From positions 3,750 through 67,749 of IMG/VR virus record IMGVR_UViG_3300020046_001459: 64,000 nt of DNA; one strand, written 5' to 3'. The notes beneath the pieces were generated by a model. It made no database searches. It was given only the letters and a program-made list of their open reading frames with translations, and was not told the origin of the DNA. Below, piece by piece: positions 13,952 to 63,570 of this stretch (position 1 is the stretch's first letter; each line of letters opens with the position of its first letter). This DNA is from a virus. Both the position numbers and the translations under genes were made by a program.

Positions 13952-13975
13952 TCTATAATAGTTCCTATTATAAGA

Positions 13976-13983
13976 TATATTTG
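13976..13983 (+). promoter_or_regulatory. candidate -7 promoter element TAtaTTTG ~55 nt upstream of the 902-aa gene
   Basis: TAnnTTTG match in 88-bp intergenic gap. Confidence 0.3.
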
Positions 13984-14039
13984 CATTCTATCATAAAAAT
14001 CATTATATTACCTATACAGTATAACAAACTTTATTATCC

Positions 14040-18887: not shown

Positions 18888-21800
18888 ATGGGTAAAAAAG
18901 AAAAATTTTCAGGTATTCCTCAAGAAGCCATTAACCAACCAATACAATTAGATCCAGCATTATTTAAACAAAAATCAGAATTTATAGGTTCTTCACAGAA
19001 TAAAGATTTTGGGGAAAGTAAGCTTGATACTAATGTACCTGTTTCAATGGTTGAATCAGGAGATTATAAATACTTACGTGGTCAAAAACAATCTAATTTG
19101 GATAAAGCTGCTCATGGAATTATCCGTGGGGTAGGAGCCGCTGCTCAAACTTTAGCAGATGGTACTGTTGGTATTGGTTATGGTTTGATGAAATATTCAT
19201 CAGATGTTGCTACAGATGAATTAAATAAAGCTAAATATAAAGCTGAACATGGTACTCTTGAAGGATTTAAACCTTCTTCATGGACTGCTATCTTTGATAA
19301 TGAAGTTACTAGAAAAGGTGAGGAACTTGTTAAGGATCTAGAAGGTGAAGTACCTCTCTATAATACTAAAGAGTATGAAGAGGCATCTGGTATTGAGAAG
19401 TTGAAATATATGAACTTCTGGATGGATGATGTTGTTAAAGGTATTGGTACCACAGTTGGTTCTATGCCTTTAGGAGCTATGGGCTCTAAATTATTTAATG
19501 CTATTGGTAAGAACTTTGTAGCTGGTAAACTAGCTAATGGGGTTAAGACTGCATTAACTGGTACTGAGAATCTGGAAAAGGTTCTTGTAGATCAAGCTAA
19601 AAAAATAAAAATATATAATGCCACAGATAAACTAACTGCCAGTGCTTTTGCTTCTGTAAGTGAGGCTGGTATGGAAGCTCGTGGTACAGGAGATAAATTA
19701 CGAGAACAGTTATTATCTGAAATCTCTGCTAATGGTACAAGACAACCTACTCAAGCAGAATTAGACTGGGTAGAAATGACTGTAGATGATGCTAAGAAAG
19801 CTGCTTTTGGAACTAACATGGCTATTATTAGTGGTACAGATTTCTTTACCTTTGGTAAGTACATGGTATCTAATAAGTCTGCTAAGTACTTAGACGATAT
19901 AGAAAAACTATCTTCTAAGACTAATGTTAATGCTGGAAAGTATATCAATAAGGTTTCTAAAGAAGGTTCTACATTAGGTACAGATTACGTAGCTACAGAG
20001 TTATCTAAAAGTAAAAAAATATTAGATGCTGTAACTAAAGCTACTAAGCGTGTTATAGGAACTAATCTTGGTGAAGGTATTGAAGAGAATCTTCAAACTG
20101 CTACTGATTGGGGAGTTATTGACTTCGCTAAACAAAAATATTATGGTAAGCAAGATGCAGAATCTTTCTTACATTCATTAGGCGCAGCCTATGAAGGTGC
20201 AACATCTTCTGAAGGTGTTGAGGCTTTCTTAGCCGGATTTATTAGTGGTGGTATCTCTAACACTATTCTATCTAAGGGACAAAATATTAAAGAAGCATTC
20301 TCTAAGGATCCTGTTGTTAATAATGCTTTATCACAAATAAACCTATACAACTCTCAAAGTGTTATGGGTGAGTTAATGAAAGGTGTTGCTGAACAGTATG
20401 CTGCTGGTGTGCGTATGGATAATGCTAAGAGTGATACTTTTACATTTAACAATGCTCAATCAGATTTAGCTACTAGTTATGTATTAAGTCGTATTAAGAC
20501 TGGTAAGTTTGAAGATTTACAAACAGATCTTGATGAGTTAAAATCAATGCCTTCTGATGAGGTAGAAAAACTATTTGGTGTTAAGATTGGTGAAGGTGGT
20601 AAGAGATCTGTAGTAGATTATATCCAAGGAAAGATGGAGCAAGCTAAACAGATCAAACAGATCCATGATGCTAGTTATGTTGTGTTCCCTGAAGGAACTG
20701 TATCTGATAATAATCGTGATAGATTAATACATGCTAATGTATCTATCTTAGACTCACAAAAACGTATAGACTCTGTTAATAAAGATATCTTAGAAAAAAC
20801 AACAGGTCTATCTGAAAACTATAGTGAGAACGGACAAGTATCTACTGTTAACCTATCTCATTTCACAAAATCTGATGGTACAGTAGTTAACTATAATCAA
20901 CTTTCAGGTAAAGAAAGAAGTGCTGTTAGTGGTGAAATAGTTGCTAGATTAGAAAATAGTTCTATAGCTCCTGTAGAAATTCCTGGAATATTTAATCAAT
21001 TACATGATTTAGATAGATTAAAAGTTAGGCATGATGCCTATAAGGATATTTATAATTCATTATTAAATCCTGTAGAGGCTGCTAAGTTAGATAAAGAAGA
21101 TGCTGCTATTGAGAAAGAAATAGTACAGGAGAATGCTGCTAAAAAACTACAAGAAGAAAATCCCATTGTTACCAAAACTACAGAAAGTAAATCTGCTGCA
21201 TTAGCTGCTGCTCAAAAAGAAGCTACTGAAAATGGTAATATTGATGTCAACACAGAAGATTTCGCTGATCCTAATATTAAAAAAGCTAATACTATTATAG
21301 ATAAGATTGGGGAATCACAAATAGATAATCCAATGTTTGATGCTTCTGGTAATTTTAATCCTGATGCGGAAGATCCTGGTAAAAAAACATATGATAATTC
21401 TAAAAAACCTTTAACTGTACATAAAGAAGTTCTATCTGGGAAAGATACTTTTAATAGAATACATGTTAATAAGCATGATGCACCCAACGTTAAGGTTAAT
21501 GAGCTTAGAAAAGCACTGAGTAATATTTTTAAACTTCCAAAATCTGAATGGAATAAATATATAAAAATAGATCTTACTAATTATTGGTCTACAAGAAATA
21601 CTTCCAGTGATCAAATTCATACTAATAAATCTAATTCCCCATTTAATACTAAAGGTAACCAAGATATAGATACTAAAATTATTATTATTGATCCTGCTAC
21701 AGGAAAGATAGTAGATGATTTCCATAATATAAAGTATCATAATATGCTTACTCCTAAGAAGGAGATGGTTATAGGTACTAAAACATATAAACCTGGTGAG

Positions 21801-24800
21801 TCTATTGAGATTGATCAGCTTACATATGAAGAGGCTGTAGAACTTTTTGCAATAAATCAAGATGAAGAATTAACTGAGGAAGAATTTGAAGCATACAAGA
21901 TCTCTTATAAAGAGATAAAAGACTTACGTAAAGCATTAACACTTTACTATGAGTCTACTAAGAAGAAAGATGAAGAGCACATGGAGGTTCCATCTAAGAT
22001 GTATGATGTAGCTCCATTATGGGCTCTTGATTATATTCAAGATGGTGCTGTAGAATATCCTGCTATAAGTACTATAGAAGGTGCTAAAGATACTGATGGT
22101 AAATATGTTATTTATCAAGGTGGTACTGTGCAGAAATTTTTGATTGGTACTGATACTAAAGTTGGAGATATAAATACCGTACCTAATGGTAGTGGTGTTT
22201 ATCTTCAAGTTACTTTGCCAGATGGCTCTAAGAAATGGATGCCTATTAAATCTGCTAAAGTTAAACCTGCTACTAAAGTATGGGAAAGAATTCAGAATGC
22301 TGCTGCAGAATTAGCTAAAATACCAGCAGGTAATAAAGAGGAAGCATACCAAGTTATTAAAGATTTATCTTTGTATGCCGCAGGTAGAGGTAAGTTGGAT
22401 TTTAGTTATGGTTGGAATTCTGATTTAAAAAAATACACATTACGTTTCAATGTTGGTAATGGTCTTGAAACTCCTAAGTCTATTGACTTATCAGAAGGTG
22501 TTTCTAAGACTGATAAAGCTACTATGCTTGAGAAGGATTTAAATTTCCTTATTAATCGTATTAACTATCATGCTAATAAGAGAGGAATATCTACTACTAT
22601 AGACGAAAATTCTTTTAGAGAAGATACCCCTATAGAACCATCTAATAAACCTATTGTAGGTAATTTTGTAGCTACTGCTACTGGATTTACACCTACTAAT
22701 ATTAAGATATATCCAGCTGATTTAGCTGTTAAAGAAGCTCCTGTTGTTGTATATAAGAAAAAAAGCACACCTACTAAAACAGAAAAAGCAGATGTTAAAC
22801 CTGAGCCTAAAACTAAGGTAGATGGACTTATAGAAGAAGATAAGAAATTTAAAGATAAGGGAATTACTAGAAAAAGAAAAGGTAAAAATGGTGCTGCAAA
22901 AACAGGTAGTACTACAAAAACCCCTATTGATCTACAGAAAGCCTTAGACTATTTAAAAGGTATATTACCTGCAGGTATTAAAGTTGAGATGTCCCATGTA
23001 GCTGAAAAGCTATCTAATGGTGATATGTTATGGGGATTCTTTAGTGATTCAGTATTGAAGCTTAACGCCTTAGCTGAAGCTGGAACTGAATTCCATGAAG
23101 CTTTTCATGCTGTATTTAGATCTGTATTATCTGATAAACAGATAGATACTTATTTATCAGTGGCTAAAAAAGAAATGAATCTTTCTGAAGCTCAGTTAGA
23201 GGCACGTAAAAATGAATTACGCTCTTTATATGATGAGATTAGTGAGAAAGAATTAGAAGATTTAGTTTATGAGGAATACTTAGCAGATAAATTCCAAGCT
23301 TGGAAAAAGGATAAAGCAACTCCTACTGCTGTAGTAAACAAAGGATTATTTAGAAGATTATTAGATTTTGCTAAAGAATTCTTAGGTATTAAATCTAAGG
23401 TAGATAGTTTATTTGAGCGTATAGATACTGGATATTATGCCGGTAAAGATGCTGTTATAAACAGATTTACAGATACAGATCAAGCAGCATATAAATCATT
23501 ACCAGGTAAAACAATAGCACAATCTAAAGATATTATTGTTACTGTTGCTGCAAAAGCTGCAGAAACTGCATTCAAAGAAAAGTCTAAAAAACCTGATATT
23601 ACCAGAGCTCTAGATGAATATATACAAGGTTATTCTTCAGAAGCTAACGTGGATGAGAAGAAAGCTGTACGTGCTTTACTACAAGAAGAGTATGAATACT
23701 TAACACATCCTGAGATCTATAAACAGATATTTACTGAAGTAAATAATATTACTAAGCGTTATAAGTATGATGCCATGACTGACTCTTTTCTTGAAATGGA
23801 AGAGTCTGAGGGCGGTGCTGAGAATTGGCAATTTGATCACTTTGAAGTAGGTGGTGTGGATATGTTAGATTCTGATATAAGATCTTTCCTAGCCTTAACC
23901 TTATATGAAACTAAGGATGAGTATGGACGTACTATTCAGAAAGCTATCAATTTAGATACTGTATATAATGCAATTATTACCAACTTAATTGATGTACACC
24001 CTTCTGAATTTTTATCTAGATTAAAAGTACTTAGTAAGTATAATCCTGAAGTTAGGGCTGTGGTTGCTAAGATTGAAGCTAAGACTAAAGATAGAGGACT
24101 TGTTGGAGAACAACTATTAAAGAAAATTCAGAAGTCATTTGAGCGTACTAAAATGAATTACTTAACCATACGTTCTGTAACTAATGGTACCTCAAATATA
24201 TTTAACTCTAACTATAAGTCTCCTGAAAAGAAACTATTCAATAATTGGTCTAACAACTATATACACAATATTTTAGGTAAATTAAGTTCTGATACTAAGT
24301 TTAAGAAGGAAGTTATTAAGAAGTTATTAGATATTCAAAAAGCTATTAATAATGATACTTCTACAGTAGGTGTTAAAAAAATACCTTTAAAAGAAGCTAT
24401 TATTAGCACATTAAATGAATTAGGTATAGATATTACCGAAGGTACAGTAGATTTATTCTTTACTCCTAATACGGATAACTCGTTAGATGCTATTAGAGAA
24501 CAATACAAAGATCTTGAGAAACCTATCGTAGGATTCTTTAGTCACCTTAGTAACTTAGTATCTAAAGGAGATCTTATCTATAAAGGAGCTCTTGAAACTA
24601 ATGATAAGGACTCTGTTGGTTATGTAAAGCAATTATTAAATTTAGCTATAGCAGATAAACATTTTAGAGCAGACTTATTTGAGTCATCTTTCCAAGACGC
24701 TAGAAATAAGAACAGATACTCTTTTATAATGCAGTCTTATTTATCAGACATGATTATAGAGTTACAGAAAGGGCTATCTTCTAAAACAGCTGTTGAAGAA

Positions 24801-27800
24801 AAACAAAAAGATCCTTACTTTGCTAAATCACCGTTATTTAAATTATTCACACCTGCTGTTATTGCTGATACTTTCAGTAATATGCAATTGTTATTTACAG
24901 GAGATTTAATTGAGGTAGAAGAAAAAACCTTCGATGGTAAAAAATCCTTTACTAAAAATGAACGTGTAGATGGTGTTACTGCTAAGAATATCAAGGCTAA
25001 AGAATACTTGCTTATGCAGTTATTATTATTTAGTGATCAACAAAAAAACACACAGACAGGATTAAACACAGCTAAGTATGTTGTAGGTGTAGAAGAGTCT
25101 AAATCTCAGATCTACGCTGTAGACTTACCTGTACTAACAGGAGTTGTTACAGAAGCAGGTATGATCAATGGGGATGGTGCTCTGCAAATATTTAATACTA
25201 TATTCTCTCAAGAAATTGATAGGTTAATAAATGGTATTCCTTCTAAAAAGAAGGGGTTTGCTTATTTTAATGACTTTAATAATAGAGAGAAATATAAAGC
25301 TTTACATGATACCTTTGAAGGAGAATATAATACAAAAGGAGAGCTTGTAAAAATTAATAGGATTGCTAATAATGATACTTTTAAAGCAGAGGCTTTGAAA
25401 GCTATTACACAAACTGTTAATGAAGAAATAACAGATGTATTATCTATGGCTAATGAATATCAATTAGCTGATAGAACTAAGAATGGTGTTGAGACCTATG
25501 GTACTTTCGATAAGTTAGTAGGTTCTGCTGTAGTTAATGACTTTTTAATGTCTTCCTCAATAGATCAACTTGTTGATGGAGATTTATCACAATATAAAGA
25601 TGTCGATGATAAATTTAAGCGTAATGGCGGTAGAAATGCAGCTGGTATAAACAGATCTGGTAGTGAGATTAATGTTGCTTATACTACTGAGTCTAAAGAA
25701 ACTAAGAAAGATTCTATCTCAGGAGATGCTGAAATAAATGTAGATGATGCTCAAGTATATTCTTCTGTACAAGATAGGATAAATATGTTAAGTGATTTTG
25801 GTAGATTAACACCAGAAATAGAAGATATTCTTAATCGTATAGATAATCCTCCTATTGTTAATGGTGTACCTCAGTTTATTACAGAAGAAGAAGCTAGTAA
25901 GGTAGACTTAGTTGCTGCTAAGTTAGTTACCTATGGTAAAGATAATGCTGGTAATTTAATTTACCACAAGATGTCTGTATTCCCTTTAACTAAACAATTT
26001 ACGTCAAGATATGATGCTAAGTCTGAACGCTGGGTAGCTTTACCAGGAAGAGAAAAACTACACAATAAGAGGGAGTGGATGGAGAAACATAATATTCATC
26101 AACTGATACCATTATCAGCTTCTAAATTAACTAGTCCTGATAATATTATTAAGCATGAAAGCTTCAATAGTTCTGATTTTGATGTGAATAATCATTTTGG
26201 GTATAAAGATAAAGATGGTAATCTTAAATCTTACGCAAAATATAATGGTAAATTCCAACGTTTACAAGTAGAGAATGATTCTGGTTCTACAGAGATTGTT
26301 AATGGTACTCAAAAAATACAGTTGATTACTGCTGGTCTTGACATGACTAAAGATAGTAATGTCAATGATGTTAAAAAGTATTATGAATTGTTAGCTAAAC
26401 TACGTCAAACCTTATTTGATGATGCTTTAAGTATACTAAGTACATCAAAAGAAGGTAAAACAAGACGTAAGGATCTTAAAGTATTCATTAACAAATTGAT
26501 GAATAATGCTGCTTCTAGTGGTTCTAGTTTTATTATGGAACAATTCTTAGCTGAAGAAGGCGGAGATTTTAAAAATGATCCTAACTTACCACACTTATTA
26601 AGTCAGTTTGAGAAGTATTTCTTAGCACACTTTAATAAAGGTGTTATGATTCAGAAAACTACTGGTAATAAACTTACATTAGTAAGTGCTGATGGTATTA
26701 AAGTACATCGTGATAATTATGGTAAAGTAATTTCTGCTGAGGAGTTAGCTGTTAATCCCAAGTTAGCTGTTAATCCGGCTGAAGATTTACGTATCCATAA
26801 AATGGAAAATGGTAAGTTACAGTATGCTGAGGTTATGATGACTAGACGTTCTGCTGAACTACTAGGACTTAAACCTGGTGATAGTCTAACTGCAGAAGAA
26901 GTTAAGATCATGTTGGGTACTCGTATCCCATCACAGTCTCAACACTCTATGATGCCATTTAAAGTTGTAGATTTCTTACCTGACTACTATGGTGATAGCA
27001 TAATAGGCCCTAAAGAATTAGTATGGTTATCAGGAGCTGACTTTGATATTGATAAGTTGTATGTCTATAGAAAAGGTACCTACAGAAATAAAAAAGGTGA
27101 CCTTGTTATTTTTGGTAAGGGTAATGCTTTTGAAGAATACACATTATCTAAAAAAAATACTAAGGTATTTAAAGATACCTTGGAGAAGATGGTTTTAGAG
27201 AATCCTACTTTCCCTGAATATAAGGATTTACTAGATAGACGTAATGCTATTTATGCTTCTTTAGAAGAAAACTTAGCTAAATCTAAAAAAGAAGACCAGC
27301 GTGCTTTATTGAGAGGTATTAAAAATTTAAAAAACTTAATTAAAATTAATGCTATTAATTCTAAAGAAGACGAAGATCATCCTTTAGTACAAGAAAGAAG
27401 AAAAGCTCAACTTTTATTTGACTCTATTAAAGATGATTTAGATAAATATACTACTGCTGCTGGCGGTGGTATGTCATTATCTAGTATTAATGATCGTATA
27501 ACTCAATTTGAAGAAGCTTATGAATTAGATGCTATGGAAGAACTTGGTTTTATTACTTCTAGTACTGAATCAGTTCCACCCGCAGCTGAGACTTTACAAA
27601 ATCAATTATTAGACTTAGAATTATCTCTATTAGATAGACCAGAACTAGAGGAGTCCTTAAAGACACCTGCTAGTGTAGACACTCTTAAAACCATTGCTAA
27701 CACTCTAACTAAAGTAGGTGGAGCTAAGTTAAATAAAGCAAGGTTATCTTTAGGATTATTATCTAAATTTATTGGTAAGAAGAATATTGATATTGGTAAA

Positions 27801-30125
27801 GAAAATATTGGTATTGCTGCTAATGGCAACATAGCCAATGCTTGGTTAACTACTAATAGAATCCACTTAAAAGATGAATTTGCTATTAATCTAGACGGTA
27901 AAAACTATGGTAGTTTTGAGTTTGTTAATGAAGAAGATATGGTGTTGAATGAAGATGGTACTTTGAATAAAGAACTTATTCGTAAACCTAAATCTGATAC
28001 TATTTCTACTGAACTATCGGCTGCTACAGATAACGCCAAAGAACAATTAGCATCATTAGTTAATCGTGCTAGTGATATTTTAAATGGGGTGTTAGTTTGG
28101 CAATCTTTAGGATTAGGGCAGACACGTACTACTATTATGGCTGTACAACCTATCATGGTTGAACTTACAGAAAAGATAGAGTTAACTAAATCTAATATTG
28201 ATAAGAAATCCCTTAAGATAGGTACATCAATGGTTCCTAGAGCTAAAGATGTTGCTGGAGCGCTTATGGAAGATCTTATGCAAAAATTCTATGCTGCTGC
28301 TGAAAAAGAAATGGAAGCAGCTAATATAAAAGGTACTCGTGAGGATATTAAGGAACCTCAGTATTCTTTAAACACTGAACAGTTACTAGAAATTTATAAG
28401 AAAGGTAAAGCTGAAACTTCTGACGAAATTCTACAGCAAATAGCTGTATTAGGTGCATATATCAAAGCTATGGAAGTTAATGATGCTAACACTAAATTAT
28501 TATCTTTATTAAAAGTTAATAAGGGAGTAGGATCTGAACTAACCAATCTTGAAACCATAGCTGAAAATTATGAGGCTTTACAAGATTCTGCACAAATACC
28601 TTATGGTCAAAGTTTTGTAAACGCACTTAGAACACATCCTAATATTAAAGTAAATAAGGATATGGCTAGAACTATAAAGAATATAGCGTCTGAATTTTTT
28701 ATTCGTGAGACTGGTGGTTATAAAATTTTTCAAAATAGATTTGGTAAGTTATTTGGAAATAGAAATTTTAGAGAAAAACAAAAGGCTGTTAAGGACTTTT
28801 TAACATTCCTAAATTTACGTATCTATGAGAAAACCCTACGTGAAGATTATGGTGATGACAGTTTTAGATTAGATGAATTGAATAAATTAGCTTACTCTGG
28901 TATAGAGGAAGGTAGTGTTTCTATTATAGCTGACTTTAATGCTTTATTAAAAACTGATTCAGTACTAGAAGTAATAGCATCTAATTCAAAGAAAGAATTT
29001 GCAAAGAATGATTTAGTTAAGTGGTTAACTGTAAAACCAGCAGATTCTAACTATAGAAGAATAGACTTATTAACTGTTGATACCCGTGCTAAACTGTCTA
29101 ATGATGTATTAGAAAAGTTTAACCAATCATTAAATGATCTTTATAACTCTTCTAACGCGGATATAAAACAATTTGCACAGGATGTATTTGATTATTTAGT
29201 TGTAGAAGGTAATCTAAAGTTTACTAACGAAAGTTTAATTAAGTTTATAGGACCAGAATTCTTCTTAAGTATATCTAAGAAGTTGAAAGAAGTTACTAAA
29301 CTCTTTGGTACTGTTGGTCCTAAAGAACTTTCTGTTGAGGATAAAACTTTTAATGCTAAGTTACAAACTGCTACTGGTTATACCTTTTCAGAGCTAGTTA
29401 ATATGTATACAGAGTTATATGCACGTAGTACTAAAAATGCTAAGAATTTAATAAATGTACACGGTAAAGATTTTAAAGAATCCTTTACAGTAACTTTGAA
29501 TAAAGATGTATTGTCTGTTGATTTAATTGATGTTGAAAAAGCAAACCAACAATCTTTTATGGAGGGTATTGTAGAAGATAAGACTGTTGTAGGATTAAAG
29601 TTCCCTGCCTTTTTAGGTGTAGTTGGTAAAAATCAAATGATGGAGGATTATCATGATGTTTATAAACTGACTGAAAGTACAGACTTCAAAGCTGTATATA
29701 CAAGAGTTGATAAATTTTATGACTTACATAACCCTATGTTACATCTATCTCCAGAGGAGGCCACTAAGTTATCTCAATACCTAGCTAGTAAAAAAGGTAG
29801 TTTTAATGGGGCTTATTCTGATAATGTAGAGTATACTCAAGAAGATTTAGATTTTGCTAACGCACAATTTCAGAGAGCTAAACCAGAATATGCTTATGAA
29901 CCTGGTAGTAATATAGAAAATGCACCTGATTTAGATGATGAGAATTTACCTGGTACTATACCTGCTTCTTTAGTATCTAGAATAGAAACTATAGGTGAAG
30001 AAGAATATGAGGTACCATTAAGATACTGGGAAGCTGCAGATGCTGAAGCTGAGCGCCAACAAGGTAAGACCCCAGATGTAGATGATAATAATTTACCAGA
30101 TATTAAAGATCCAAACTGTGATTAA
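18888..30125 (+). CDS. giant protein (3745 aa) with RNA-polymerase-like DxDxD catalytic-loop motif; candidate virion-packaged RNA polymerase as in crAss-like phages
   Basis: Single uninterrupted ORF; motif WLSGADFDIDKLYVY (DFDID) ~residue 2720 resembles the NADFDGD loop of the RNA polymerase double-psi beta-barrel; highly basic K-rich linker near residue 1290. Confidence 0.7.
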   Translation: MGKKEKFSGIPQEAINQPIQLDPALFKQKSEFIGSSQNKDFGESKLDTNVPVSMVESGDYKYLRGQKQSNLDKAAHGIIRGVGAAAQTLADGTVGIGYGLMKYSSDVATDELNKAKYKAEHGTLEGFKPSSWTAIFDNEVTRKGEELVKDLEGEVPLYNTKEYEEASGIEKLKYMNFWMDDVVKGIGTTVGSMPLGAMGSKLFNAIGKNFVAGKLANGVKTALTGTENLEKVLVDQAKKIKIYNATDKLTASAFASVSEAGMEARGTGDKLREQLLSEISANGTRQPTQAELDWVEMTVDDAKKAAFGTNMAIISGTDFFTFGKYMVSNKSAKYLDDIEKLSSKTNVNAGKYINKVSKEGSTLGTDYVATELSKSKKILDAVTKATKRVIGTNLGEGIEENLQTATDWGVIDFAKQKYYGKQDAESFLHSLGAAYEGATSSEGVEAFLAGFISGGISNTILSKGQNIKEAFSKDPVVNNALSQINLYNSQSVMGELMKGVAEQYAAGVRMDNAKSDTFTFNNAQSDLATSYVLSRIKTGKFEDLQTDLDELKSMPSDEVEKLFGVKIGEGGKRSVVDYIQGKMEQAKQIKQIHDASYVVFPEGTVSDNNRDRLIHANVSILDSQKRIDSVNKDILEKTTGLSENYSENGQVSTVNLSHFTKSDGTVVNYNQLSGKERSAVSGEIVARLENSSIAPVEIPGIFNQLHDLDRLKVRHDAYKDIYNSLLNPVEAAKLDKEDAAIEKEIVQENAAKKLQEENPIVTKTTESKSAALAAAQKEATENGNIDVNTEDFADPNIKKANTIIDKIGESQIDNPMFDASGNFNPDAEDPGKKTYDNSKKPLTVHKEVLSGKDTFNRIHVNKHDAPNVKVNELRKALSNIFKLPKSEWNKYIKIDLTNYWSTRNTSSDQIHTNKSNSPFNTKGNQDIDTKIIIIDPATGKIVDDFHNIKYHNMLTPKKEMVIGTKTYKPGESIEIDQLTYEEAVELFAINQDEELTEEEFEAYKISYKEIKDLRKALTLYYESTKKKDEEHMEVPSKMYDVAPLWALDYIQDGAVEYPAISTIEGAKDTDGKYVIYQGGTVQKFLIGTDTKVGDINTVPNGSGVYLQVTLPDGSKKWMPIKSAKVKPATKVWERIQNAAAELAKIPAGNKEEAYQVIKDLSLYAAGRGKLDFSYGWNSDLKKYTLRFNVGNGLETPKSIDLSEGVSKTDKATMLEKDLNFLINRINYHANKRGISTTIDENSFREDTPIEPSNKPIVGNFVATATGFTPTNIKIYPADLAVKEAPVVVYKKKSTPTKTEKADVKPEPKTKVDGLIEEDKKFKDKGITRKRKGKNGAAKTGSTTKTPIDLQKALDYLKGILPAGIKVEMSHVAEKLSNGDMLWGFFSDSVLKLNALAEAGTEFHEAFHAVFRSVLSDKQIDTYLSVAKKEMNLSEAQLEARKNELRSLYDEISEKELEDLVYEEYLADKFQAWKKDKATPTAVVNKGLFRRLLDFAKEFLGIKSKVDSLFERIDTGYYAGKDAVINRFTDTDQAAYKSLPGKTIAQSKDIIVTVAAKAAETAFKEKSKKPDITRALDEYIQGYSSEANVDEKKAVRALLQEEYEYLTHPEIYKQIFTEVNNITKRYKYDAMTDSFLEMEESEGGAENWQFDHFEVGGVDMLDSDIRSFLALTLYETKDEYGRTIQKAINLDTVYNAIITNLIDVHPSEFLSRLKVLSKYNPEVRAVVAKIEAKTKDRGLVGEQLLKKIQKSFERTKMNYLTIRSVTNGTSNIFNSNYKSPEKKLFNNWSNNYIHNILGKLSSDTKFKKEVIKKLLDIQKAINNDTSTVGVKKIPLKEAIISTLNELGIDITEGTVDLFFTPNTDNSLDAIREQYKDLEKPIVGFFSHLSNLVSKGDLIYKGALETNDKDSVGYVKQLLNLAIADKHFRADLFESSFQDARNKNRYSFIMQSYLSDMIIELQKGLSSKTAVEEKQKDPYFAKSPLFKLFTPAVIADTFSNMQLLFTGDLIEVEEKTFDGKKSFTKNERVDGVTAKNIKAKEYLLMQLLLFSDQQKNTQTGLNTAKYVVGVEESKSQIYAVDLPVLTGVVTEAGMINGDGALQIFNTIFSQEIDRLINGIPSKKKGFAYFNDFNNREKYKALHDTFEGEYNTKGELVKINRIANNDTFKAEALKAITQTVNEEITDVLSMANEYQLADRTKNGVETYGTFDKLVGSAVVNDFLMSSSIDQLVDGDLSQYKDVDDKFKRNGGRNAAGINRSGSEINVAYTTESKETKKDSISGDAEINVDDAQVYSSVQDRINMLSDFGRLTPEIEDILNRIDNPPIVNGVPQFITEEEASKVDLVAAKLVTYGKDNAGNLIYHKMSVFPLTKQFTSRYDAKSERWVALPGREKLHNKREWMEKHNIHQLIPLSASKLTSPDNIIKHESFNSSDFDVNNHFGYKDKDGNLKSYAKYNGKFQRLQVENDSGSTEIVNGTQKIQLITAGLDMTKDSNVNDVKKYYELLAKLRQTLFDDALSILSTSKEGKTRRKDLKVFINKLMNNAASSGSSFIMEQFLAEEGGDFKNDPNLPHLLSQFEKYFLAHFNKGVMIQKTTGNKLTLVSADGIKVHRDNYGKVISAEELAVNPKLAVNPAEDLRIHKMENGKLQYAEVMMTRRSAELLGLKPGDSLTAEEVKIMLGTRIPSQSQHSMMPFKVVDFLPDYYGDSIIGPKELVWLSGADFDIDKLYVYRKGTYRNKKGDLVIFGKGNAFEEYTLSKKNTKVFKDTLEKMVLENPTFPEYKDLLDRRNAIYASLEENLAKSKKEDQRALLRGIKNLKNLIKINAINSKEDEDHPLVQERRKAQLLFDSIKDDLDKYTTAAGGGMSLSSINDRITQFEEAYELDAMEELGFITSSTESVPPAAETLQNQLLDLELSLLDRPELEESLKTPASVDTLKTIANTLTKVGGAKLNKARLSLGLLSKFIGKKNIDIGKENIGIAANGNIANAWLTTNRIHLKDEFAINLDGKNYGSFEFVNEEDMVLNEDGTLNKELIRKPKSDTISTELSAATDNAKEQLASLVNRASDILNGVLVWQSLGLGQTRTTIMAVQPIMVELTEKIELTKSNIDKKSLKIGTSMVPRAKDVAGALMEDLMQKFYAAAEKEMEAANIKGTREDIKEPQYSLNTEQLLEIYKKGKAETSDEILQQIAVLGAYIKAMEVNDANTKLLSLLKVNKGVGSELTNLETIAENYEALQDSAQIPYGQSFVNALRTHPNIKVNKDMARTIKNIASEFFIRETGGYKIFQNRFGKLFGNRNFREKQKAVKDFLTFLNLRIYEKTLREDYGDDSFRLDELNKLAYSGIEEGSVSIIADFNALLKTDSVLEVIASNSKKEFAKNDLVKWLTVKPADSNYRRIDLLTVDTRAKLSNDVLEKFNQSLNDLYNSSNADIKQFAQDVFDYLVVEGNLKFTNESLIKFIGPEFFLSISKKLKEVTKLFGTVGPKELSVEDKTFNAKLQTATGYTFSELVNMYTELYARSTKNAKNLINVHGKDFKESFTVTLNKDVLSVDLIDVEKANQQSFMEGIVEDKTVVGLKFPAFLGVVGKNQMMEDYHDVYKLTESTDFKAVYTRVDKFYDLHNPMLHLSPEEATKLSQYLASKKGSFNGAYSDNVEYTQEDLDFANAQFQRAKPEYAYEPGSNIENAPDLDDENLPGTIPASLVSRIETIGEEEYEVPLRYWEAADAEAERQQGKTPDVDDNNLPDIKDPNCD
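26744..26776 (+). repeat. in-frame tandem duplication (15-bp exact repeat GTTAGCTGTTAATCC x2, period 18) inside giant gene
   Basis: Encodes LAVNPK LAVNPA. Confidence 0.6.
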
Positions 30126-52705: not shown

Positions 52706-53707
52706 TTAATCTATTAAGTTATAATTATTATATACTGTAGGTGTATTACTATCTTTAATGAATTTATTTAGATATTTTGACCTAAAAGTTACTTGTCCTT
52801 CGACAGTCTTTATTTCAGGCTTTTTAATCTCAAACTTTTTAACAGGTAATAAAACCTCTGGTTTATATGTTTGGTTTAAATAACCATTCTTAATTGATTC
52901 TGCCCAATCCCTTTGCTCACTAATAGTCTTTAATTCTGGTAAATGTACCCCTGAGAAAAACTCAGATATACCAGATTTAATAACAACTTTTATCTTATTT
53001 GGATTAGTCATTATATTGAATAAATATTTAGTAACTTTAGTATGATTCATTGAAGTTATACTATCAGTTTCACAGTTTACCCAAAATTCAAATTTAGATA
53101 CATCTATAGGTAATCCAAGTAGATTAGCCCCTTTATAATAATCTATGTAGGTTTTATCTATCATTAACATTACTAAAGGTCTAATCTTAGAATCATTACC
53201 TAACACACCTCCAAATCCTTTACTTACAAAAAGAAAGCTACTACCTAAGATACCAGTATATAAACTTCTATACGATAGTGGTACAGATACTTTTGCATAG
53301 TTATTAACAAATATCTTACTTGTAATATTGTTAAACATAGCATGATATGCTATTGTTTTAGTAAAATTATTTGTATAAACAAAAGCTGAAGCATCATACA
53401 TACATGAATCATATGTATCTAAGTAGTTTGCAAAATTTCTAGCAGCTGTTCTTTTAGTACTCTCCAACTGATCATGATGAATGTCTTCTCTTAAAAGACA
53501 CTTAATAAAGTCAAAACTACCTCTAGTAGGAACACTCTTATTCGTATAATATAAATCAATAGATTCATAATCACCTAATGCGTTAGTATTAAAACTTGGT
53601 AGAATACATACAGGAACATGAGTATCTGTTGACTTTAATCTAAACAATGGAGAGGCTACTGAACTAGTGGACAGTGGCTTACATATAGTTAAATCACGTA
53701 GGTTCAT
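52706..53707 (-). CDS. hypothetical protein (333 aa), last gene of E1/JAB operon
   Basis: ATGA-coupled to E1-like gene. Confidence 0.5.
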   Translation of the reverse strand: MNLRDLTICKPLSTSSVASPLFRLKSTDTHVPVCILPSFNTNALGDYESIDLYYTNKSVPTRGSFDFIKCLLREDIHHDQLESTKRTAARNFANYLDTYDSCMYDASAFVYTNNFTKTIAYHAMFNNITSKIFVNNYAKVSVPLSYRSLYTGILGSSFLFVSKGFGGVLGNDSKIRPLVMLMIDKTYIDYYKGANLLGLPIDVSKFEFWVNCETDSITSMNHTKVTKYLFNIMTNPNKIKVVIKSGISEFFSGVHLPELKTISEQRDWAESIKNGYLNQTYKPEVLLPVKKFEIKKPEIKTVEGQVTFRSKYLNKFIKDSNTPTVYNNYNLID

Positions 53708-54426
53708 TTTATTTCAAAATTAAATAATGCTAATTGATAATCTATATTAAATGGTAATGCTCTGATAGGTGTCTTTAAATTAACTAAGAAGTTATTAAAA
53801 CCACTAACCATTAAACTTGCTATCATTGTTGAACAATGTGTAGTACCTTTATAGGAACAGTCTTCTAAAGCAACCTCAGAGTCATCAAATAATGTAGCTC
53901 TATATTGTTCTATTCTGTCTGTAGTGACAAAAAATACTTGACCTATTTCTGCTAGTAATCTACCATCAATAAATATAGCATCTTTACTATCTTTATATTG
54001 TGTAGCCCAAGCTTCAAACAAGATCTTCCTAGCCTCCATATTATCAAAACAAGAAAAGCAATATTTATCTATACTTACTGTATTTTCAGTTAATTCTCCT
54101 AGATCAATAAATTTACCATTTTTATCAATCATAGGATCTGCAAAATTAACCAATGATTCACACAAAGCTGTTGTCTTAAGATCTCCTATATTACCATGTA
54201 TATATAGCTGTGAAGCTAAATTAACCTCATCTACAGTATCTTTATCATAAACAAACAAGGTAACACCCTGTCTGGCTAAAAATAAAGCTACCCATGATCC
54301 TATATTACCAACACCACCAACAATAGCTGTTGCGTCCTTAGCTTGGTTAAACCAAGGAGCATTAGAAAATCTAGACTTTTTAACATCAATATCTTCAAGA
54401 ATTGATATAACTTCATTATTTTCCAT
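53704..54426 (-). CDS. E1-like ThiF/MoeB-family adenylyltransferase
   Basis: VGGVGNIGSWVALFLARQGV...DKDTVDEVNLASQ and CFDNMEAR motifs. Confidence 0.8.
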   Translation of the reverse strand: MENNEVISILEDIDVKKSRFSNAPWFNQAKDATAIVGGVGNIGSWVALFLARQGVTLFVYDKDTVDEVNLASQLYIHGNIGDLKTTALCESLVNFADPMIDKNGKFIDLGELTENTVSIDKYCFSCFDNMEARKILFEAWATQYKDSKDAIFIDGRLLAEIGQVFFVTTDRIEQYRATLFDDSEVALEDCSYKGTTHCSTMIASLMVSGFNNFLVNLKTPIRALPFNIDYQLALFNFEIK

Positions 54427-55609
54427 CTTTTTTACCTTTTTTAAGTTTTAAAAATGCTTTATCTAATCCAGCAATAGCTTTACTAAGCTGATTTTCATTA
54501 CTAAATTTATGTATCTTAGGTGTTTTTTTTGTTTCTACTGCAAAATCAGCAGGTTCATCCACGTCAATATACATATCAAATATATCAATGATTTTATCGT
54601 AAAATGGATATCCTGATAAACGATATTTATCTAAGCACATAATACATTGTTTAAAGAATGCATTATGATGTTCTATTTCTAGAGTATCTCCAAAAACAGC
54701 ATAGTATGTAGTATTTAGACCAAAATCAAAGGCATCCCAAAACATTAAATCAAAAGCTTCACCGTACTGTTTCTGCTCTTTCTTAATATGGTCTAGTACT
54801 TCTTTAAGTCCCTCTGCAGTTTTTGTATCTAGAGATAAGGCTTTACTTAAATAAGACTCTATTTCAGAAACTGTTTTAGGTATATAAGGATTTGATTTAC
54901 CAAAACCCTCTCCAAACTGCGCTCCTAGATTTAGTTGATTAGAAGGGGTGGGGAAAGAAGGTCTGTTAAAAGATGTTACTTTCTTTACTGCTTCCGCTTC
55001 TGTTTTAGCTTTTCTGATAGAATCATATCTATCAAAATCAAATGTATCTAATTCATACTCTATAACACAATTAATAGTAAGTAATTGTTTATCCAATGTA
55101 GGTTTACTATCCTCAAGTCCTTTAAAAGAAAGACCATGACTAAATTTATACTTAGTTTCAACTTCAATATCAGCAATAATTCCTATCTTAGCGCAGAAAT
55201 TACCACCATTTCTAAAGTTTACAATTAATGATAAGTAAAAATTATGTGCTCCTGCGTTAGATTTTAATTCTTCTGTATCAGTTCCACTGAAAAATGCCTC
55301 CATATCATGATGTGTATGGAGCATTCCCCACTTCATTGTTAGTGCTTCAGGATATTTCTGATAAAAGTCTACAATAGACTCATCAGGTGAAAACTCTGTA
55401 TATGCTGCAGAACCAATATCCATCAAATAGACACGTTCTGCCTTTAGTACTAGTGTAGCAGGATCATTAATATCCCCTGATACAATTTTATAAAATACTA
55501 ATCCACTCCACTCAATATTACCAACTTTATGGTGTAGGTATGACACCTGTGCTAATACCTCTTTAGAAATAATTAGTCTTGCTTTACTCTTAAATTCAAC
55601 TTGTTGCAT
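54416..55609 (-). CDS. JAMM/JAB (MPN+) metalloprotease with ~230-aa C-terminal extension
   Basis: IEWSGLVF (E..G.L) and HTHHDMEAFFSGTD = HxHx7Sx2D. Confidence 0.8.
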   Translation of the reverse strand: MQQVEFKSKARLIISKEVLAQVSYLHHKVGNIEWSGLVFYKIVSGDINDPATLVLKAERVYLMDIGSAAYTEFSPDESIVDFYQKYPEALTMKWGMLHTHHDMEAFFSGTDTEELKSNAGAHNFYLSLIVNFRNGGNFCAKIGIIADIEVETKYKFSHGLSFKGLEDSKPTLDKQLLTINCVIEYELDTFDFDRYDSIRKAKTEAEAVKKVTSFNRPSFPTPSNQLNLGAQFGEGFGKSNPYIPKTVSEIESYLSKALSLDTKTAEGLKEVLDHIKKEQKQYGEAFDLMFWDAFDFGLNTTYYAVFGDTLEIEHHNAFFKQCIMCLDKYRLSGYPFYDKIIDIFDMYIDVDEPADFAVETKKTPKIHKFSNENQLSKAIAGLDKAFLKLKKGKKDGK

Positions 55610-58448: not shown

Positions 58449-60335
58449 TTAAAATAATTCTAATTGTTTATTTATAATATTATCAATTTCTTTGTTACAC
58501 TCTTTAATATAAAAATCATAATTTATATCATAATCATCTGATTCTTGATACTTATTAAATACTGTAATTTGATATCCTTTATTAATCATCTCTGTACTAC
58601 CTTTCTTATAAACTTTAATAAAAGTAGACCCTTGATTAGATATGAAATATCTTACATTCTTTTGTTGTTTTAATACTTCTTTATAAGGTAATCTGCAATG
58701 ATTATACATTAATGTATGTGTTTCACCATAAGACTCTGATGTAAACTTTTGTCTACCACAAAAATCATATATGTTCTTATGATTTTTAATAGTCTGTTCA
58801 ACTGGAATATCTTTTACAAAGTATTCACTTAATGCTAGTGGAATTATTCTAAATGAATTGTCTTTATGTAATTCTTTATCTATTTCAAAAGCACCCTTAT
58901 ATTTACATTTACCATCAGTTTTAACAGCAATATAATTATTAACATCCCTTATTATCATTTTAGAATAATCTACAAATTCAAGATTAAGTTTGGTCTTGAT
59001 TTCCCAATCTTTACAGATTTCATAATAAAGATTAATCTGTTCTATATGTATCTTAACAGTTAGACCATCCGTATTAATTTGAAGCATTTGTAATCCAGGA
59101 ATAGTTACAACTAATTGTTCAGCTAACATAGATAACATCAATTGACCATTTAAAGTAATTTTCATAGTATACAAAGGATCCATGAGAAAACTAAATTTAT
59201 CATTTGATTTTCCATATACACTATTCAATGCTAACTTAAAAGCATCACTAATAGACATATTACCAGCTTTTTTAGCTTCAATACGTTGTTTTAAGATTCC
59301 TTCATAAATATCACAAAAAGATTTACCTAAATGTTCTGGATATAAACCATTAACCACAGCTATACTTGGATATAAGGATGCCACATCAGCATCTATAATA
59401 ACATATTCATCATCAGATTCATATATTCCTGGCTTTATACAACCATGAATTCCACCAGAACCATAATCATATTTAAATCCTTTATATATAACAGATTCAT
59501 CTATAGAACCTTTTGTTTCTGTTATGGTAGTATTATTAAAAGTATCTAGGATTTTATTAAATTCAAGGGTTTCAAATGATATATAATCAAATATACAATC
59601 TTTTAAATTAATTTGTGTTCTATTAGAGCGCATTTGTTTAACATCATATATATTTAATCCTGTTTTCTCACAATATAGTTTAAGTACTAATTGCTCACCT
59701 ATTTTACTATCAGGATAATTAGAACATCCTAAATTATAGCGAGCATCTAAATCTTTTCTAATAGCTATCTTATCTTTTGATAATTTATAAAACTCATATG
59801 TAGCTAAAACATCATTTAAATTATATTCTAGTATAGATGGTATTTCATCTAATGTAATATCTTCTTTAGTATGCTCAATAGGCATTTCCATTACATTAGG
59901 ATAATTCATGCTTATCTCTAATGCTTTAAGACTAGTACTTCTAGCCTTATTATTAAAATGCCATAATCTAAATAAATCTAATTGTTTAATTCTAGTATCA
60001 GACTCTTTAATAGTTACAAAAGCACCATTAATCTTATTTTGCTCAGTAATGATGCGTTGAGCTTCACTATAAGCTAATTTAATAATGTCTTTTGTATTTA
60101 CAGGAGCAGTTATTAATATTTTATGTATAACAGGGTAATCAAAACCAACATTATTAAATCCTATTTGTCCTTTACAATCTTGATCTAAATGCTCTAAAAA
60201 AGCAACAGAATCATCCCTGTCTTTATGTATAACATATTGAACTACTTCTTGAGTATCTATATTCATAGCACTATATGTGAAACATGAAGCTAAAGTTTCA
60301 ATATCATATACCCATATCTGACGATTTGTTATCAT
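58449..60335 (-). CDS. family B DNA polymerase with 3'-5' proofreading exonuclease (compact, 628 aa)
   Basis: Exo I VYDIETL, Exo II NNVGFDYPVI, Exo III YNLND; Pol motif A DADVASLYPSI, motif B KLALNSVYGKS, motif C-like QINTDGL. Confidence 0.85.
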   Translation of the reverse strand: MITNRQIWVYDIETLASCFTYSAMNIDTQEVVQYVIHKDRDDSVAFLEHLDQDCKGQIGFNNVGFDYPVIHKILITAPVNTKDIIKLAYSEAQRIITEQNKINGAFVTIKESDTRIKQLDLFRLWHFNNKARSTSLKALEISMNYPNVMEMPIEHTKEDITLDEIPSILEYNLNDVLATYEFYKLSKDKIAIRKDLDARYNLGCSNYPDSKIGEQLVLKLYCEKTGLNIYDVKQMRSNRTQINLKDCIFDYISFETLEFNKILDTFNNTTITETKGSIDESVIYKGFKYDYGSGGIHGCIKPGIYESDDEYVIIDADVASLYPSIAVVNGLYPEHLGKSFCDIYEGILKQRIEAKKAGNMSISDAFKLALNSVYGKSNDKFSFLMDPLYTMKITLNGQLMLSMLAEQLVVTIPGLQMLQINTDGLTVKIHIEQINLYYEICKDWEIKTKLNLEFVDYSKMIIRDVNNYIAVKTDGKCKYKGAFEIDKELHKDNSFRIIPLALSEYFVKDIPVEQTIKNHKNIYDFCGRQKFTSESYGETHTLMYNHCRLPYKEVLKQQKNVRYFISNQGSTFIKVYKKGSTEMINKGYQITVFNKYQESDDYDINYDFYIKECNKEIDNIINKQLELF

Positions 60336-61104: not shown

Positions 61105-61140
61105 TGTTTAAAATAAGGGGAATACTAATATGTACTCCCC
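61105..61140 (-). terminator. candidate intrinsic terminator (- strand)
   Basis: GGGGAATAC-taatat-GTACTCCCC (1 mismatch) followed by U-rich run on - strand. Confidence 0.4.
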
Positions 61141-61150
61141 TATATTTTTA

Positions 61151-61618: not shown

Positions 61619-61915
61619 TTAAAATATTTCGTAGTCATTGACTACTATAGGTGTTTCTACTAAACATCCTGCTGCTATTTCTTCTGGAGTAGCTTTCCTG
61701 AAATGTCCTTCATTATAATTCCAAGAGTAACCAGCGCTGCCTTCAAATTGAGCATAATTTCCGCTTCTTGTATCATGAGTTAATTGTACTACTTTATTGG
61801 TGAGTTTATCCATTTTATCCACCCCGATGGTACCACAATCCCAATTTCTACATTTACCTTTTTTAAACTTTTCAGAACTACCTATTATTGTTATATATTC
61901 TCCTTTTTTAAACAT
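61619..61915 (-). CDS. small early protein, paralog 4 with C-terminal ..IVVNDYEIF tail
   Basis: Member of tandem family sharing C-terminal motif. Confidence 0.55.
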   Translation of the reverse strand: MFKKGEYITIIGSSEKFKKGKCRNWDCGTIGVDKMDKLTNKVVQLTHDTRSGNYAQFEGSAGYSWNYNEGHFRKATPEEIAAGCLVETPIVVNDYEIF

Positions 61916-61916
61916 A

Positions 61917-62141
61917 TTAAAATATTGAATAATCGTTATTTATTTGTGGTTCTACATTATGTACTTTTTTTACTAAAAAAATATCTTCATATCCCCAACT
62001 ATGTCCTTTAGTGATAGCCTGATTCCAATATAAATCTCCACCTCTAATAAAACAACTTTCTATGGTTCTTTCTGAGGTTCCGCTCCAAGATCCTTTAATA
62101 ATATCACCTGGCCCTAAACTTTGTGCTTCTTCTAATGTCAT
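61917..62141 (-). CDS. small early protein, paralog 3 with C-terminal ..QINNDYSIF tail
   Basis: Member of tandem family. Confidence 0.55.
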   Translation of the reverse strand: MTLEEAQSLGPGDIIKGSWSGTSERTIESCFIRGGDLYWNQAITKGHSWGYEDIFLVKKVHNVEPQINNDYSIF

Positions 62142-62144
62142 GTT

Positions 62145-62426
62145 TTAAAATATTTCATAGTTGTTATTAATTACAGATTCTGGTTGCTTATTTAATACAT
62201 ACTTCTCAAATTGTTCAAATGTTATTTCTTGATAACCATCTAAAATAGCTTTGTTACTACAATTTCCACCACAAAAAGATTTATCTGAAAACATTGTAGC
62301 AGCATCATCGAAAGAAGCGTTATTAGCGTTATTAGCGTTATATTTTTTGTTATTGTATTCATTTAACACTTTATGATTTTTCTTATTTCTAATTATAAAC
62401 CATTTTTTAGGTAACTTATCTTCCAT
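62145..62426 (-). CDS. small early protein, paralog 2 with C-terminal ..VINNNYEIF tail
   Basis: Member of tandem family. Confidence 0.55.
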   Translation of the reverse strand: MEDKLPKKWFIIRNKKNHKVLNEYNNKKYNANNANNASFDDAATMFSDKSFCGGNCSNKAILDGYQEITFEQFEKYVLNKQPESVINNNYEIF

Positions 62427-62428
62427 AT

Positions 62429-62644
62429 CTAAAATATATTATAATCATTAATAATTTCTGATTTGGGTGTTACTAACACACAATTCCTGTAATCATGTCC
62501 ACGATCTTTCTCATCGAATAGAGTCCAACCTACCCTACTTACAATAAATGGGTCATCATAGGTTTTACCAGCATTTGATCCGCCTTGAAATCTTACTACT
62601 TTATCACCTGCTTTAAATGGATTTTTATTCTGTGTTGTCTTCAT
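62429..62644 (-). CDS. small early protein, paralog 1 with C-terminal ..EIINDYNIF tail
   Basis: Member of tandem family. Confidence 0.55.
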   Translation of the reverse strand: MKTTQNKNPFKAGDKVVRFQGGSNAGKTYDDPFIVSRVGWTLFDEKDRGHDYRNCVLVTPKSEIINDYNIF

Positions 62645-62679
62645 GTTTTAATTTTATTTAAATGATTAATTGATTAAAA

Positions 62680-62741
62680 AATAGATGTCTCATAAGTGAA
62701 TGAAAACCCACACGACAAGGGCTAGAGAGCACTTATGAGAC
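62680..62741 (-). terminator. 12-bp perfect stem-loop (GTCTCATAAGTG / CACTTATGAGAC, 31-nt loop) followed on - strand by U6; separates RNA island from early genes
   Basis: Arms at 62687-62698 and 62730-62741. Confidence 0.45.
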
Positions 62742-62785
62742 TAAAGACCCTATTAAGCCTTTTTTCACTCTCTATTTTAATTTGA

Positions 62786-63060: not shown

Positions 63061-63106
63061 TAGTTACTTCCTAGGAATAAATGTTTTCACTACACCTCCC
63101 ACCCAG

Positions 63107-63180
63107 TGCACCCTCGTGGACTCGAACCACGCACCTACAGATTATGAGTCTGTTGCTCTGACCAACTGAGCTAAGGGAGC
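63107..63180 (-). tRNA. tRNA-Met (anticodon CAU; initiator/elongator/Ile2 not distinguishable)
   Basis: Cloverleaf: acceptor GCUCCCU/AGGGUGC (one 3:70 mismatch), D-arm GCUC-AGUUGGUCA-GAGC, anticodon stem ACAGA/UCUGU loop CUCAUAA, T-arm CGUGG-UUCGAGU-CCACG, discriminator A. Confidence 0.85.
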
Positions 63181-63184
63181 TTTG

Positions 63185-63570
63185 TGGACCCGAAGGGAAT
63201 CGAACCCTTGTAATCATAAGTTATTAATTAATTTTCTACAAGTTTAGTATTTGTTTTTCTCCCAATACAGGATATTATATTTTTATTCAGACCAGCACTT
63301 AAATATAAAAACACACTAGTCTTGTTAGGTACAAGAACAACTAAACCTTGAGGTAGTTATCTACCGTTAAGCAGCCACAAGTTCCTCAACTTGTGTCTTT
63401 GCTAACATGTTGTTAGCTAGAACGTACTTAAGGTCTTGGATAGATCCAAGGCTTGAGTCTTTGTTGCCAAATACTCGGTTACCTGATAATTTATTAAACG
63501 CTGATATTATCAGACAATGCGTTACTTGCTTGTTAATTTATAATCAAATGACTCAAAACCTGGCGGGCCC
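63185..63570 (-). ncRNA. candidate tmRNA-like RNA (~386 nt) whose 5' and 3' ends form a tRNA-Ala-like domain
   Basis: 5' GGGCCCG pairs 3' CGGGUCC giving G3:U70 wobble and A73; T-arm AAGGG-UUCGAUU-CCCUU; long-range helix 5' UUAUAAAUUAA / 3' UUAAUUAAUAA; internal frame GCA AAG ACA CAA GUU GAG GAA CUU GUG GCU GCU UAA (AKTQVEELVAA*). Confidence 0.4.

Follow-up and report, generated by a model that had tools for sequence, protein, structure and literature searches.

A shared C-terminal peptide on otherwise unrelated small phage proteins: a probable docking tail, and a tentative partner in the gene next door

Why should four small proteins that have nothing else in common end in the same few residues? 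The question is raised by a stretch of DNA of 64,000 nucleotides from an uncultured phage with 32% G+C (positions 3,750 to 67,749 of IMG/VR virus record IMGVR_UViG_3300020046_001459), which we call the window. On its minus strand lie four successive genes, P1 to P4, separated by 1-3 nt, whose proteins have [IV]N[DN][DN]YxIF as their common ending; a fifth gene, P5, comes next. The ending, called the tail in what follows, is in all probability (about 85%, by our estimate) a portable docking peptide, by which quite different proteins would attach themselves to one common receptor.

The original prediction made from the letters of the window described four abutting minus-strand genes with unrelated bodies, carrying tails that are not copies of one DNA sequence. 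The open reading frames (ORFs), collected in Table 1, agree exactly with the lengths in amino acids (aa) and the endings that it gave. At the level of sequence the bodies are indeed unrelated: pairwise BLASTP among P1-P4 aligns little outside the tail, and hhalign on tail-trimmed alignments of the bodies detects no significant relation, the top pair, P1 and P3, reaching a probability of 12.5%. Searches of Pfam and PHROGs return no match for P1-P3, and one weak match only for P4. The body of P4 belongs to a family, here family A, that may join a weakly SH3-like beta barrel, of the five-stranded SH3-like/KOW kind, to a 'RKATPEEI' helix; that of P1 is possibly a small beta barrel. The tail itself is confined to these four genes when the window is translated in six frames. 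The peptide pattern [ND][ND]Yx[ILV]F has four matches in all six frames of these 64 kb, each of them immediately preceding a stop codon, and the DNA pattern back-translated from the tail also has four matches, against 0.00 expected from 100 shuffles. The codons for Asn, Asp and Tyr differ among the four genes, as had been claimed. All four tails use ATA for Ile, which is unremarkable since ATA makes up 41% of the Ile codons there.

Table 1. Positions in the window of the tail-bearing genes, their tail-coding segments, the gene P5 and the two flanking hairpins
Feature	Position	Strand	Description
P1	62429..62644	minus	71 aa; body starts FKAGDKVVRF.., Pro-containing linker, tail EIINDYNIF
P2	62145..62426	minus	93 aa; Asn-rich body, tail VINNNYEIF
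P3	61917..62141	minus	74 aa; tail QINNDYSIF
P4	61619..61915	minus	98 aa; family A body, linker, tail IVVNDYEIF
P5	61151..61585	minus	144 aa, conserved four-helix protein; PHROG 2574 (function unknown)
P1 tail-coding segment	62432..62458	minus	six-frame and DNA pattern scans, codon comparison
P2 tail-coding segment	62148..62174	minus	six-frame and DNA pattern scans, codon comparison
P3 tail-coding segment	61920..61946	minus	six-frame and DNA pattern scans, codon comparison
P4 tail-coding segment	61622..61648	minus	six-frame and DNA pattern scans, codon comparison
Hairpin, 12-bp stem and T-run	62676..62742	minus	~30 nt upstream of P1 start; 92% conserved in contig L122
Terminator-like hairpin and T-run	61116..61141	minus	directly after P5

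Comparison with related contigs tells us at which level the tail is preserved. In a close relative, L149, P5 is 100% identical to its counterpart in the window, while P1, P3 and P4 are about 66%, 68% and 90% identical. The ratio of non-synonymous to synonymous substitution rates (dN/dS) between window and L149 is 0.47-0.89 for P1-P4; for P5 and PolB, computed on the more distant pair with L122, it is 0.13-0.19. The bodies evolve fast, and the tails stay: against L149, the final 12 codons are free of non-synonymous changes in all of these genes but P3, which has three. In L122, whose PolB is 75% identical to that of the window, the orthologues of P1 (58% identical) and P3 retain their tails, and a third tail protein has a different body and terminates in ..NNYEIINNYSIF. 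Orthologues of P3 are found in L149, L122 and L277, the last at 38% identity and with the tail PVINNYQIY. Every tail position varies in synonymous codons, in every lineage compared; in L274 the ending SLLESFIIF is even encoded twice with almost entirely different codons. This codon variation rules out an element that acts at the nucleotide level. The original prediction had said that the motif is kept at the protein level and had proposed to look for its absence from homologues in related phages: the synonymous variation, and the tails retained in L149 while the bodies diverge, bear out the former, and the homologues do retain the motif.

Two peculiarities of these relatives deserve a mention. 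The P2 gene (62145-62426) and its L149 orthologue (546-863) have identical ends, with ~50 residues in the middle exchanged for unrelated sequence; the difference resembles a cassette-type swap within a gene of 93 codons. An array protein of 94 aa in L122 (1069-1353) carries a doubled tail (..ENNYEIINNYSIF), and its body motif FYLCHN...GYKRSW reappears in two large proteins of several domains, P0032 and P0045, beside family A repeats.

The tail also behaves as a unit of its own. In the structure model of P4 it has a predicted local distance difference test score (pLDDT) below 50 and comes after a Pro-containing linker: it is predicted to be unstructured and to lie outside the fold. The profile of the P4 family collects 738 representative clusters. 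Among its stand-alone members of ~100 aa, 43 of 52 end in [YF]x[ILVF][YFW], and 3 more do so with one extra residue; the background, taken from ~230 unrelated AT-rich viral loci, is 0.6% of ORFs ending in the core motif. When the same body domain is found in 2-5 copies inside proteins of 400-1100 aa, there is no tail. A short motif shared by different proteins, as first proposed, is what these data describe, and one that is autonomous, unstructured in the model and absent from embedded copies of the domain. The large proteins are P0029, P0030, P0032 and P0045, with 2-5 tandem P4-type domains recognizable by the helix 'R-x-A-T-x-E-E-x-x-W-L'; none of the four has a Pfam match, and tblastn of the five-repeat P0030 against cultured phages returns no match.

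We now turn to other phages. Degenerate DNA-pattern scans of IMG/VR for the tail yield mostly chance hits among the matches listed, in which NNYEIF in long ORFs is terminal in 1 of 46 cases, and only L035 proved informative. L035, itself a chance match, led to L271, a 165-kb phage contig in which ten small genes end in (I/V)NNxY(E/D)I(F/Y); in L272, a 58-kb contig, nine genes end in xY(Q/E)IY. Tail proteins aside, P5 is the only window protein with homologues in the L271 and L272 loci, and its homologues lie inside both arrays. Tracing P5 homologues further gives about 25 otherwise unrelated uncultured lineages, nearly all of which have a tail array abutting P5: 2-11 small genes that share one C-terminal tail per genome. 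The tail varies from genome to genome: IINNYQIY in L277 and L290 (nine genes), NxFPIY in L292 and L294, INxYSIF in L296, PTYEIY in L303, xNY(E/D)I(Y/F) in L304, FDxYEIF in L275, NNFEIW(N) in L276, LNYEF plus one residue in L279, LLxSFIIF in L274, ..LIIW and ..ICIW in L280, xEF(I/L)N in L306, and EP(Q/L)(I/L)FN in L308. In relatives chosen by their PolB, at <=66% identity, neither tails nor P5 are found within 6 kb.

Bodies and tails can then be compared independently. The 61 tail proteins examined fall into 41 BLAST clusters, and bodies of one genome that are unrelated by BLAST have the same tail. Conversely, family A bodies, identified with a hidden Markov model (HMM) from which the tail columns were left out, end in VNDYEIF in the window, NNNYEIF in L271, INDYQIY in L277, LSSFIIF in L274, IQNLIIW in L280 and SLNYEFY in L279. 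The tail goes with the genome in which it occurs, whatever the body family. Recent duplication, the other outcome that had been named as speaking against a shared motif, is excluded as an explanation by this two-way pattern: homologous bodies differ in tail between genomes, and non-homologous bodies agree within one. It is the pattern that would be expected of a docking peptide co-evolving with one lineage-specific receptor.

Which protein could that receptor be? The strongest lead is P5, which the original prediction does not mention. A tail is borne by 56 of the 169 same-strand ORFs that lie no more than 3.5 kb from P5, versus 3 of the 192 farther away (Fisher p = 9e-18), and for most pairs of loci P5 is the sole protein in common at E<1e-5. 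The P5 neighbourhood can also be used to predict: in two short contigs that had not been inspected, the gene abutting P5 ends in ..VINNYEIF (L283) and ..AINNNYSIY (L284), and ~14 further lineages have since shown the same P5-adjacent pattern. Array and P5 are inherited together, and they also disappear together: in L121, a contig with almost the same PolB as L122, other genes replace both, with the boundary exactly after P5. The protein matches phrog_2574 with E=1.3e-8 (residues 18-143 on profile positions 15-138 of 140), and has neither a Pfam match nor a helix-turn-helix (HTH) domain. Its AlphaFold2 model, with a pLDDT of 82, consists of four helices and two loops that bear the highly conserved motifs DSVYKTSG..GDIKTE and PEFSVNG. 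The model has no fold match in the PDB; in BFVD it matches only uncharacterised proteins of Bacillus Bastillevirinae phages (CAM003, Hakuna), and tblastn of P5 against cultured phages returns no match.

The mechanism that we propose is the following. P1-P4 would belong together with P5 as a single cassette, one instance of a module that many uncultured phages possess. Each of the small proteins would consist of a compact, fast-evolving body, a short Pro-containing linker and a C-terminal peptide of 8-9 residues with an aromatic/aliphatic core, of which the form in the window is [IV]-x-N-[DN]-Y-x-I-F-COOH. Since the handle is the same on every array protein of a given phage, these proteins would all bind one common receptor. 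The most parsimonious candidate for that receptor is P5, an identification that draws solely on co-inheritance and to which we give somewhat less than even odds; the 12-mer tail of the window that would be its cognate partner is ETPIVVNDYEIF. P5 might then act as a hub, gathering a shifting assortment of small domains for binding or effector functions, whose bodies may play a part in host interaction or in an arms race.

Several facts weigh against a tail that docks on P5. In L295 no gene immediately next to P5 has a clear tail. Tail arrays are absent from the surroundings of remote P5-like genes, which occur in Bacillus Bastillevirinae phages, C. difficile phages and L067; in the Bacillus and C. 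difficile phages every such gene bears the annotation hypothetical, and the remote proteins lack the P5 subfamily motifs. The link with the tail is thus a property of one P5 subfamily and, since P5-like proteins occur without arrays, P5 has a function that is independent of the tails. The tail FPIY appears at three separate places of the P5 tree (L292, L295 and L297) without a consistent switch in a P5 column, one variable position being the exception, and the comparison of P5 columns with tail variants revealed no convincing co-variation. Some 34 P5 columns hardly vary between lineages, even where the tails are very different, and the conserved face of P5 may consequently bind something other than the tail. 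By analogy with Aca genes, P5 could also be a co-regulated marker. In anti-CRISPR loci, a conserved Aca gene stands beside diverse and changing small genes, and serves as a marker for guilt by association. However, anti-CRISPR proteins share no common peptide, and Aca is an HTH regulator, whereas P5 has no HTH or other Pfam domain.

What we propose remains a system in which diverse cargo proteins have a targeting or docking peptide in common, with a real chance that it is a new one of the hub-and-spoke type. In its full form, a mobile cassette in which a helical hub of the P5 subfamily receives interchangeable small domains as spokes, each through the genome-specific C-terminal peptide, the proposal is tentative, and the odds lie against it. 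If it is true, phages have a general route by which one machine acquires new modules for host binding or anti-defence, and metagenomic effector discovery gains a simple sequence rule. For most small phage genes neither a function nor a handle for study is available. Here the rule is searchable: locate a gene of the P5 subfamily and inspect the C-termini of its neighbours. It has yielded well over 100 small proteins in dozens of body families, from about 25 lineages. If the tail docks on P5, or on any single receptor, identifying that one partner would serve for a whole class of dark-matter proteins, and the fast-evolving bodies become good candidates for host interaction or counter-defence. 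Peptide and receptor could also make a small orthogonal tagging pair, of which the lineage-specific tails would provide several non-cross-reacting versions. Searches of the literature, both for the peptide sequences of the tails and for arrays of C-terminal motifs in phages, brought up nothing relevant, and no description of the module.

The main rival places the common receptor in the host rather than in the phage, and its foremost candidate is the beta sliding clamp, on which the tail would dock as a degenerate C-terminal clamp-binding motif (Phi-x-Phi-F). The consensus of beta-clamp-binding motifs is QL[S/D]LF, usually at the C-terminus (PMC3716654). The window PolB ends in the canonical KQLELF-COOH (58452-58466, minus strand), and its relatives end in QLTLF, QLSLFN or QLKLF; judged by these endings, the polymerase of this phage would use a sliding clamp, presumably that of the host, and the clamp is thereby relevant as a hub during this infection. 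In hydrophobic register, NYEIF and DYEIF correspond to QLELF: Y-x-I-F would fit hydrophobic positions 2 and 4 of the clamp motif and its Phe 5. The likeness extends to the general layout, a short, mostly C-terminal, hydrophobic, Phe-ending peptide that unrelated proteins present to one hub. However, there is no conserved Gln: the place of this defining residue is taken by N or D in the window, and the other lineages have T, I, K, S or P there. The last residues, too, are in many lineages unlike those of clamp-binding motifs: Y, W or F-N, as in NYQIY, NFEIW and EPQIFN. The distribution differs as well, the tail being more uniform within genomes and more divergent between them. Within a genome it is uniform over 8-9 residues, more than the clamp pocket needs, and the clamp-binding motifs of a single bacterium are heterogeneous; between genomes, the pocket is highly conserved across bacteria, so that one would not expect the tail to drift strongly from lineage to lineage. 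Nor does this reading account for the strict linkage to P5. We regard docking on the clamp, or on another host hub, as unlikely. Of the partners that the original prediction had put forward, the sliding clamp, ClpX/ClpA and SecB, none receives direct support.

Readings of the tail as a degron, a virion-targeting signal, a structural strand or an enzyme substrate are less likely. As a degron, it would let a host or phage protease clear all array proteins on a common schedule. The tail, in the model, is exposed, unstructured, hydrophobic or aromatic, and C-terminal behind a flexible linker; the array proteins may be toxic or needed briefly, and in the lineage of the window a phage transfer-messenger RNA (tmRNA) adjoins the cassette. 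But among array-bearing lineages the tmRNA is restricted to this one, and the tails, which end in IF, IY, IW or FN, bear no likeness to the LAA-type end of ssrA tags, (Y)ALAA/LAA-COOH. A degron explains neither the linkage to P5 nor the strong divergence between lineages, and we consider it improbable. Mimicry of an ssrA tag, suggested by a comparison of NNY.. with the Bacteroidota-type tag, was rejected for the same two reasons: the tmRNA is specific to the lineage of the window, and the tail ends differ.

About equally improbable is a peptide that targets the small proteins to the virion or capsid, where they would be packaged and then injected with the DNA. It has a precedent: the internal proteins of T-even phages (IPI, IPII, IPIII and others) are highly diverse and share only a capsid targeting sequence (CTS) (PMC3012670). 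The logic of this system is the closest known to that of the arrays. In both, diverse and fast-evolving small proteins from plastic loci share only a short peptide that leads, or would lead, to one partner. In the arrays the bodies are diverse, evolve fast and come in hyperplastic sets, and P5 is helical, as scaffold proteins are. The CTS, however, is an N-terminal peptide that binds the scaffolding core and is removed by the prohead protease; in the arrays the common peptide forms the very C-terminal end, N-terminal sequences are not conserved from body to body, and we see no consensus for a protease site. The partner gene encodes a four-helix protein, no capsid gene is adjacent, and in every lineage examined the cassette lies among genes of replication or early type (PolB, PolA, helicase, SSB), away from the head genes.

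Other systems resemble a tail docking on P5 in part. Encapsulin cargo-loading peptides are short C-terminal peptides on unrelated cargo proteins encoded beside the gene of their receptor; that receptor is a shell protein of HK97 fold, whereas the neighbour here is a helical protein of 144 aa, and the peptide sequences are unrelated. The C-terminal tip of the single-stranded DNA-binding protein SSB (DDDIPF) is an aromatic-ending peptide that follows a flexible linker and recruits partners. Unlike it, the tail has no acidic run, with at most two acidic residues, and no Pro-Phe. Mimicry of the tip was dropped as an explanation: contig L150, from the same phage, has a separate SSB-sized ORF with its own ..LPF end. 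This ORF, of 141 aa (L150 4721-5146), lies upstream of the window end and terminates in ..NDQLPF, which resembles the SSB tip; it has no Pfam match at E<=0.01.

Could the array genes simply be paralogues that arose by duplication, the tail being their best-conserved structural element, such as a last or an oligomerisation beta strand? Several bodies look like small beta barrels, genomes may hold several copies of family A, six of them in L271, and there is the faint profile signal between P1 and P3. Yet the two-way pattern of bodies and tails runs counter to common descent of the array genes, tail-trimmed profiles are otherwise unrelated, embedded copies of the domain are tail-less, and a structural strand does not go with the low pLDDT of the tail. 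We hold this to be very improbable.

Finally, it is hardly credible that the tail is a substrate tag for an E1-like enzyme of the phage that adenylates or conjugates C-termini: E1-like enzymes do act on protein C-termini, and the window encodes a ThiF-family protein (53704-54426, minus strand; PF00899, E=1.4e-15) beside a protein of 397 aa with a weak Prok-JAB match (54416-55609; E=1.3e-3), but L121 has the pair and no cassette, no ThiF is annotated within ~10 kb of the arrays of other lineages, the tails end in F, Y or W rather than in the Gly(-Gly) typical of E1 substrates, and the tie was dropped because the pair is not linked to the arrays. As an observation in its own right, the pair is conserved in L121, L122 and L154, and may be a ubiquitin-like or adenylation pair of the phage.

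The surroundings of P5 in other lineages hint at a kinship. A large protein with domain DUF8224 (PF26675) is encoded a few kb from P5 in L271 (14986-17121) and L272 (15870-18019, several ORFs in the latter); at the corresponding position, L274 encodes a protein of 698 aa without Pfam match (12044-14140). A similar C-terminus (..VKVKF) is encoded at the P5-like locus of a Bacillus phage. Because of the DUF8224 proteins near P5 and this similarity, some array-bearing phages may be distant relatives of Herelleviridae.

In the window itself, hairpins with T-runs bracket P1-P5, which therefore look like one cassette: the hairpin upstream of P1 is likely its 5' boundary, and the one after P5 likely its 3' end. 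The original prediction had placed the small genes first in the minus-strand block, as would suit putative early, host-takeover genes. The placement does not hold, since contig L150 carries ~9 kb more of same-strand genes upstream of P1, past the window end. Between P1 and these upstream genes stand a tmRNA and a tRNA-Met. The two lie within 63106-63570 (minus strand), directly upstream of the cassette; the tmRNA scores 61.6 bits in Rfam, and the tag that ARAGORN predicts for it is unusually long and ends in ..ELVAA; L122 keeps the tmRNA (85% identity) and lacks the tRNA-Met and ~400 nt of spacer. The non-coding spacer between tRNA-Met and P1 (62645-63105, minus strand) is 461 nt long with raised G+C. 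It has no Rfam match at the gathering threshold, folds only mildly better than shuffled sequence (z = -1.84), and its conservation in L122 is limited to the last ~100 nt, the hairpin region.

The rest of the window is divided into two blocks. Genes for PolB, helicases, a primase and NAD-salvage enzymes lie in the minus-strand block; the polymerases of cultured phages nearest to this PolB are less than 41% identical to it. A Shine-Dalgarno-like motif precedes only 2 of 49 genes of the window, which may point to a host such as Bacteroidota. The NAD-salvage pair (36897-39513) consists of a nicotinamide phosphoribosyltransferase of 545 aa and a ribose-phosphate pyrophosphokinase of 305 aa. Also on this strand, ARAGORN predicts a tRNA-Phe (35331-35404) with anticodon AAA, unusual for a tRNA-Phe of bacterial type, where GAA is the norm. 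The plus-strand block (1-34587) holds very large proteins of virion type, among them proteins of 3745, 1608 and 1320 aa. The longest is a single ORF (18888-30125), flanked by ORFs of 1608, 902, 693 and 1320 aa; among these, the protein of 1608 aa is the one with a PHROG match, to a virion structural protein.

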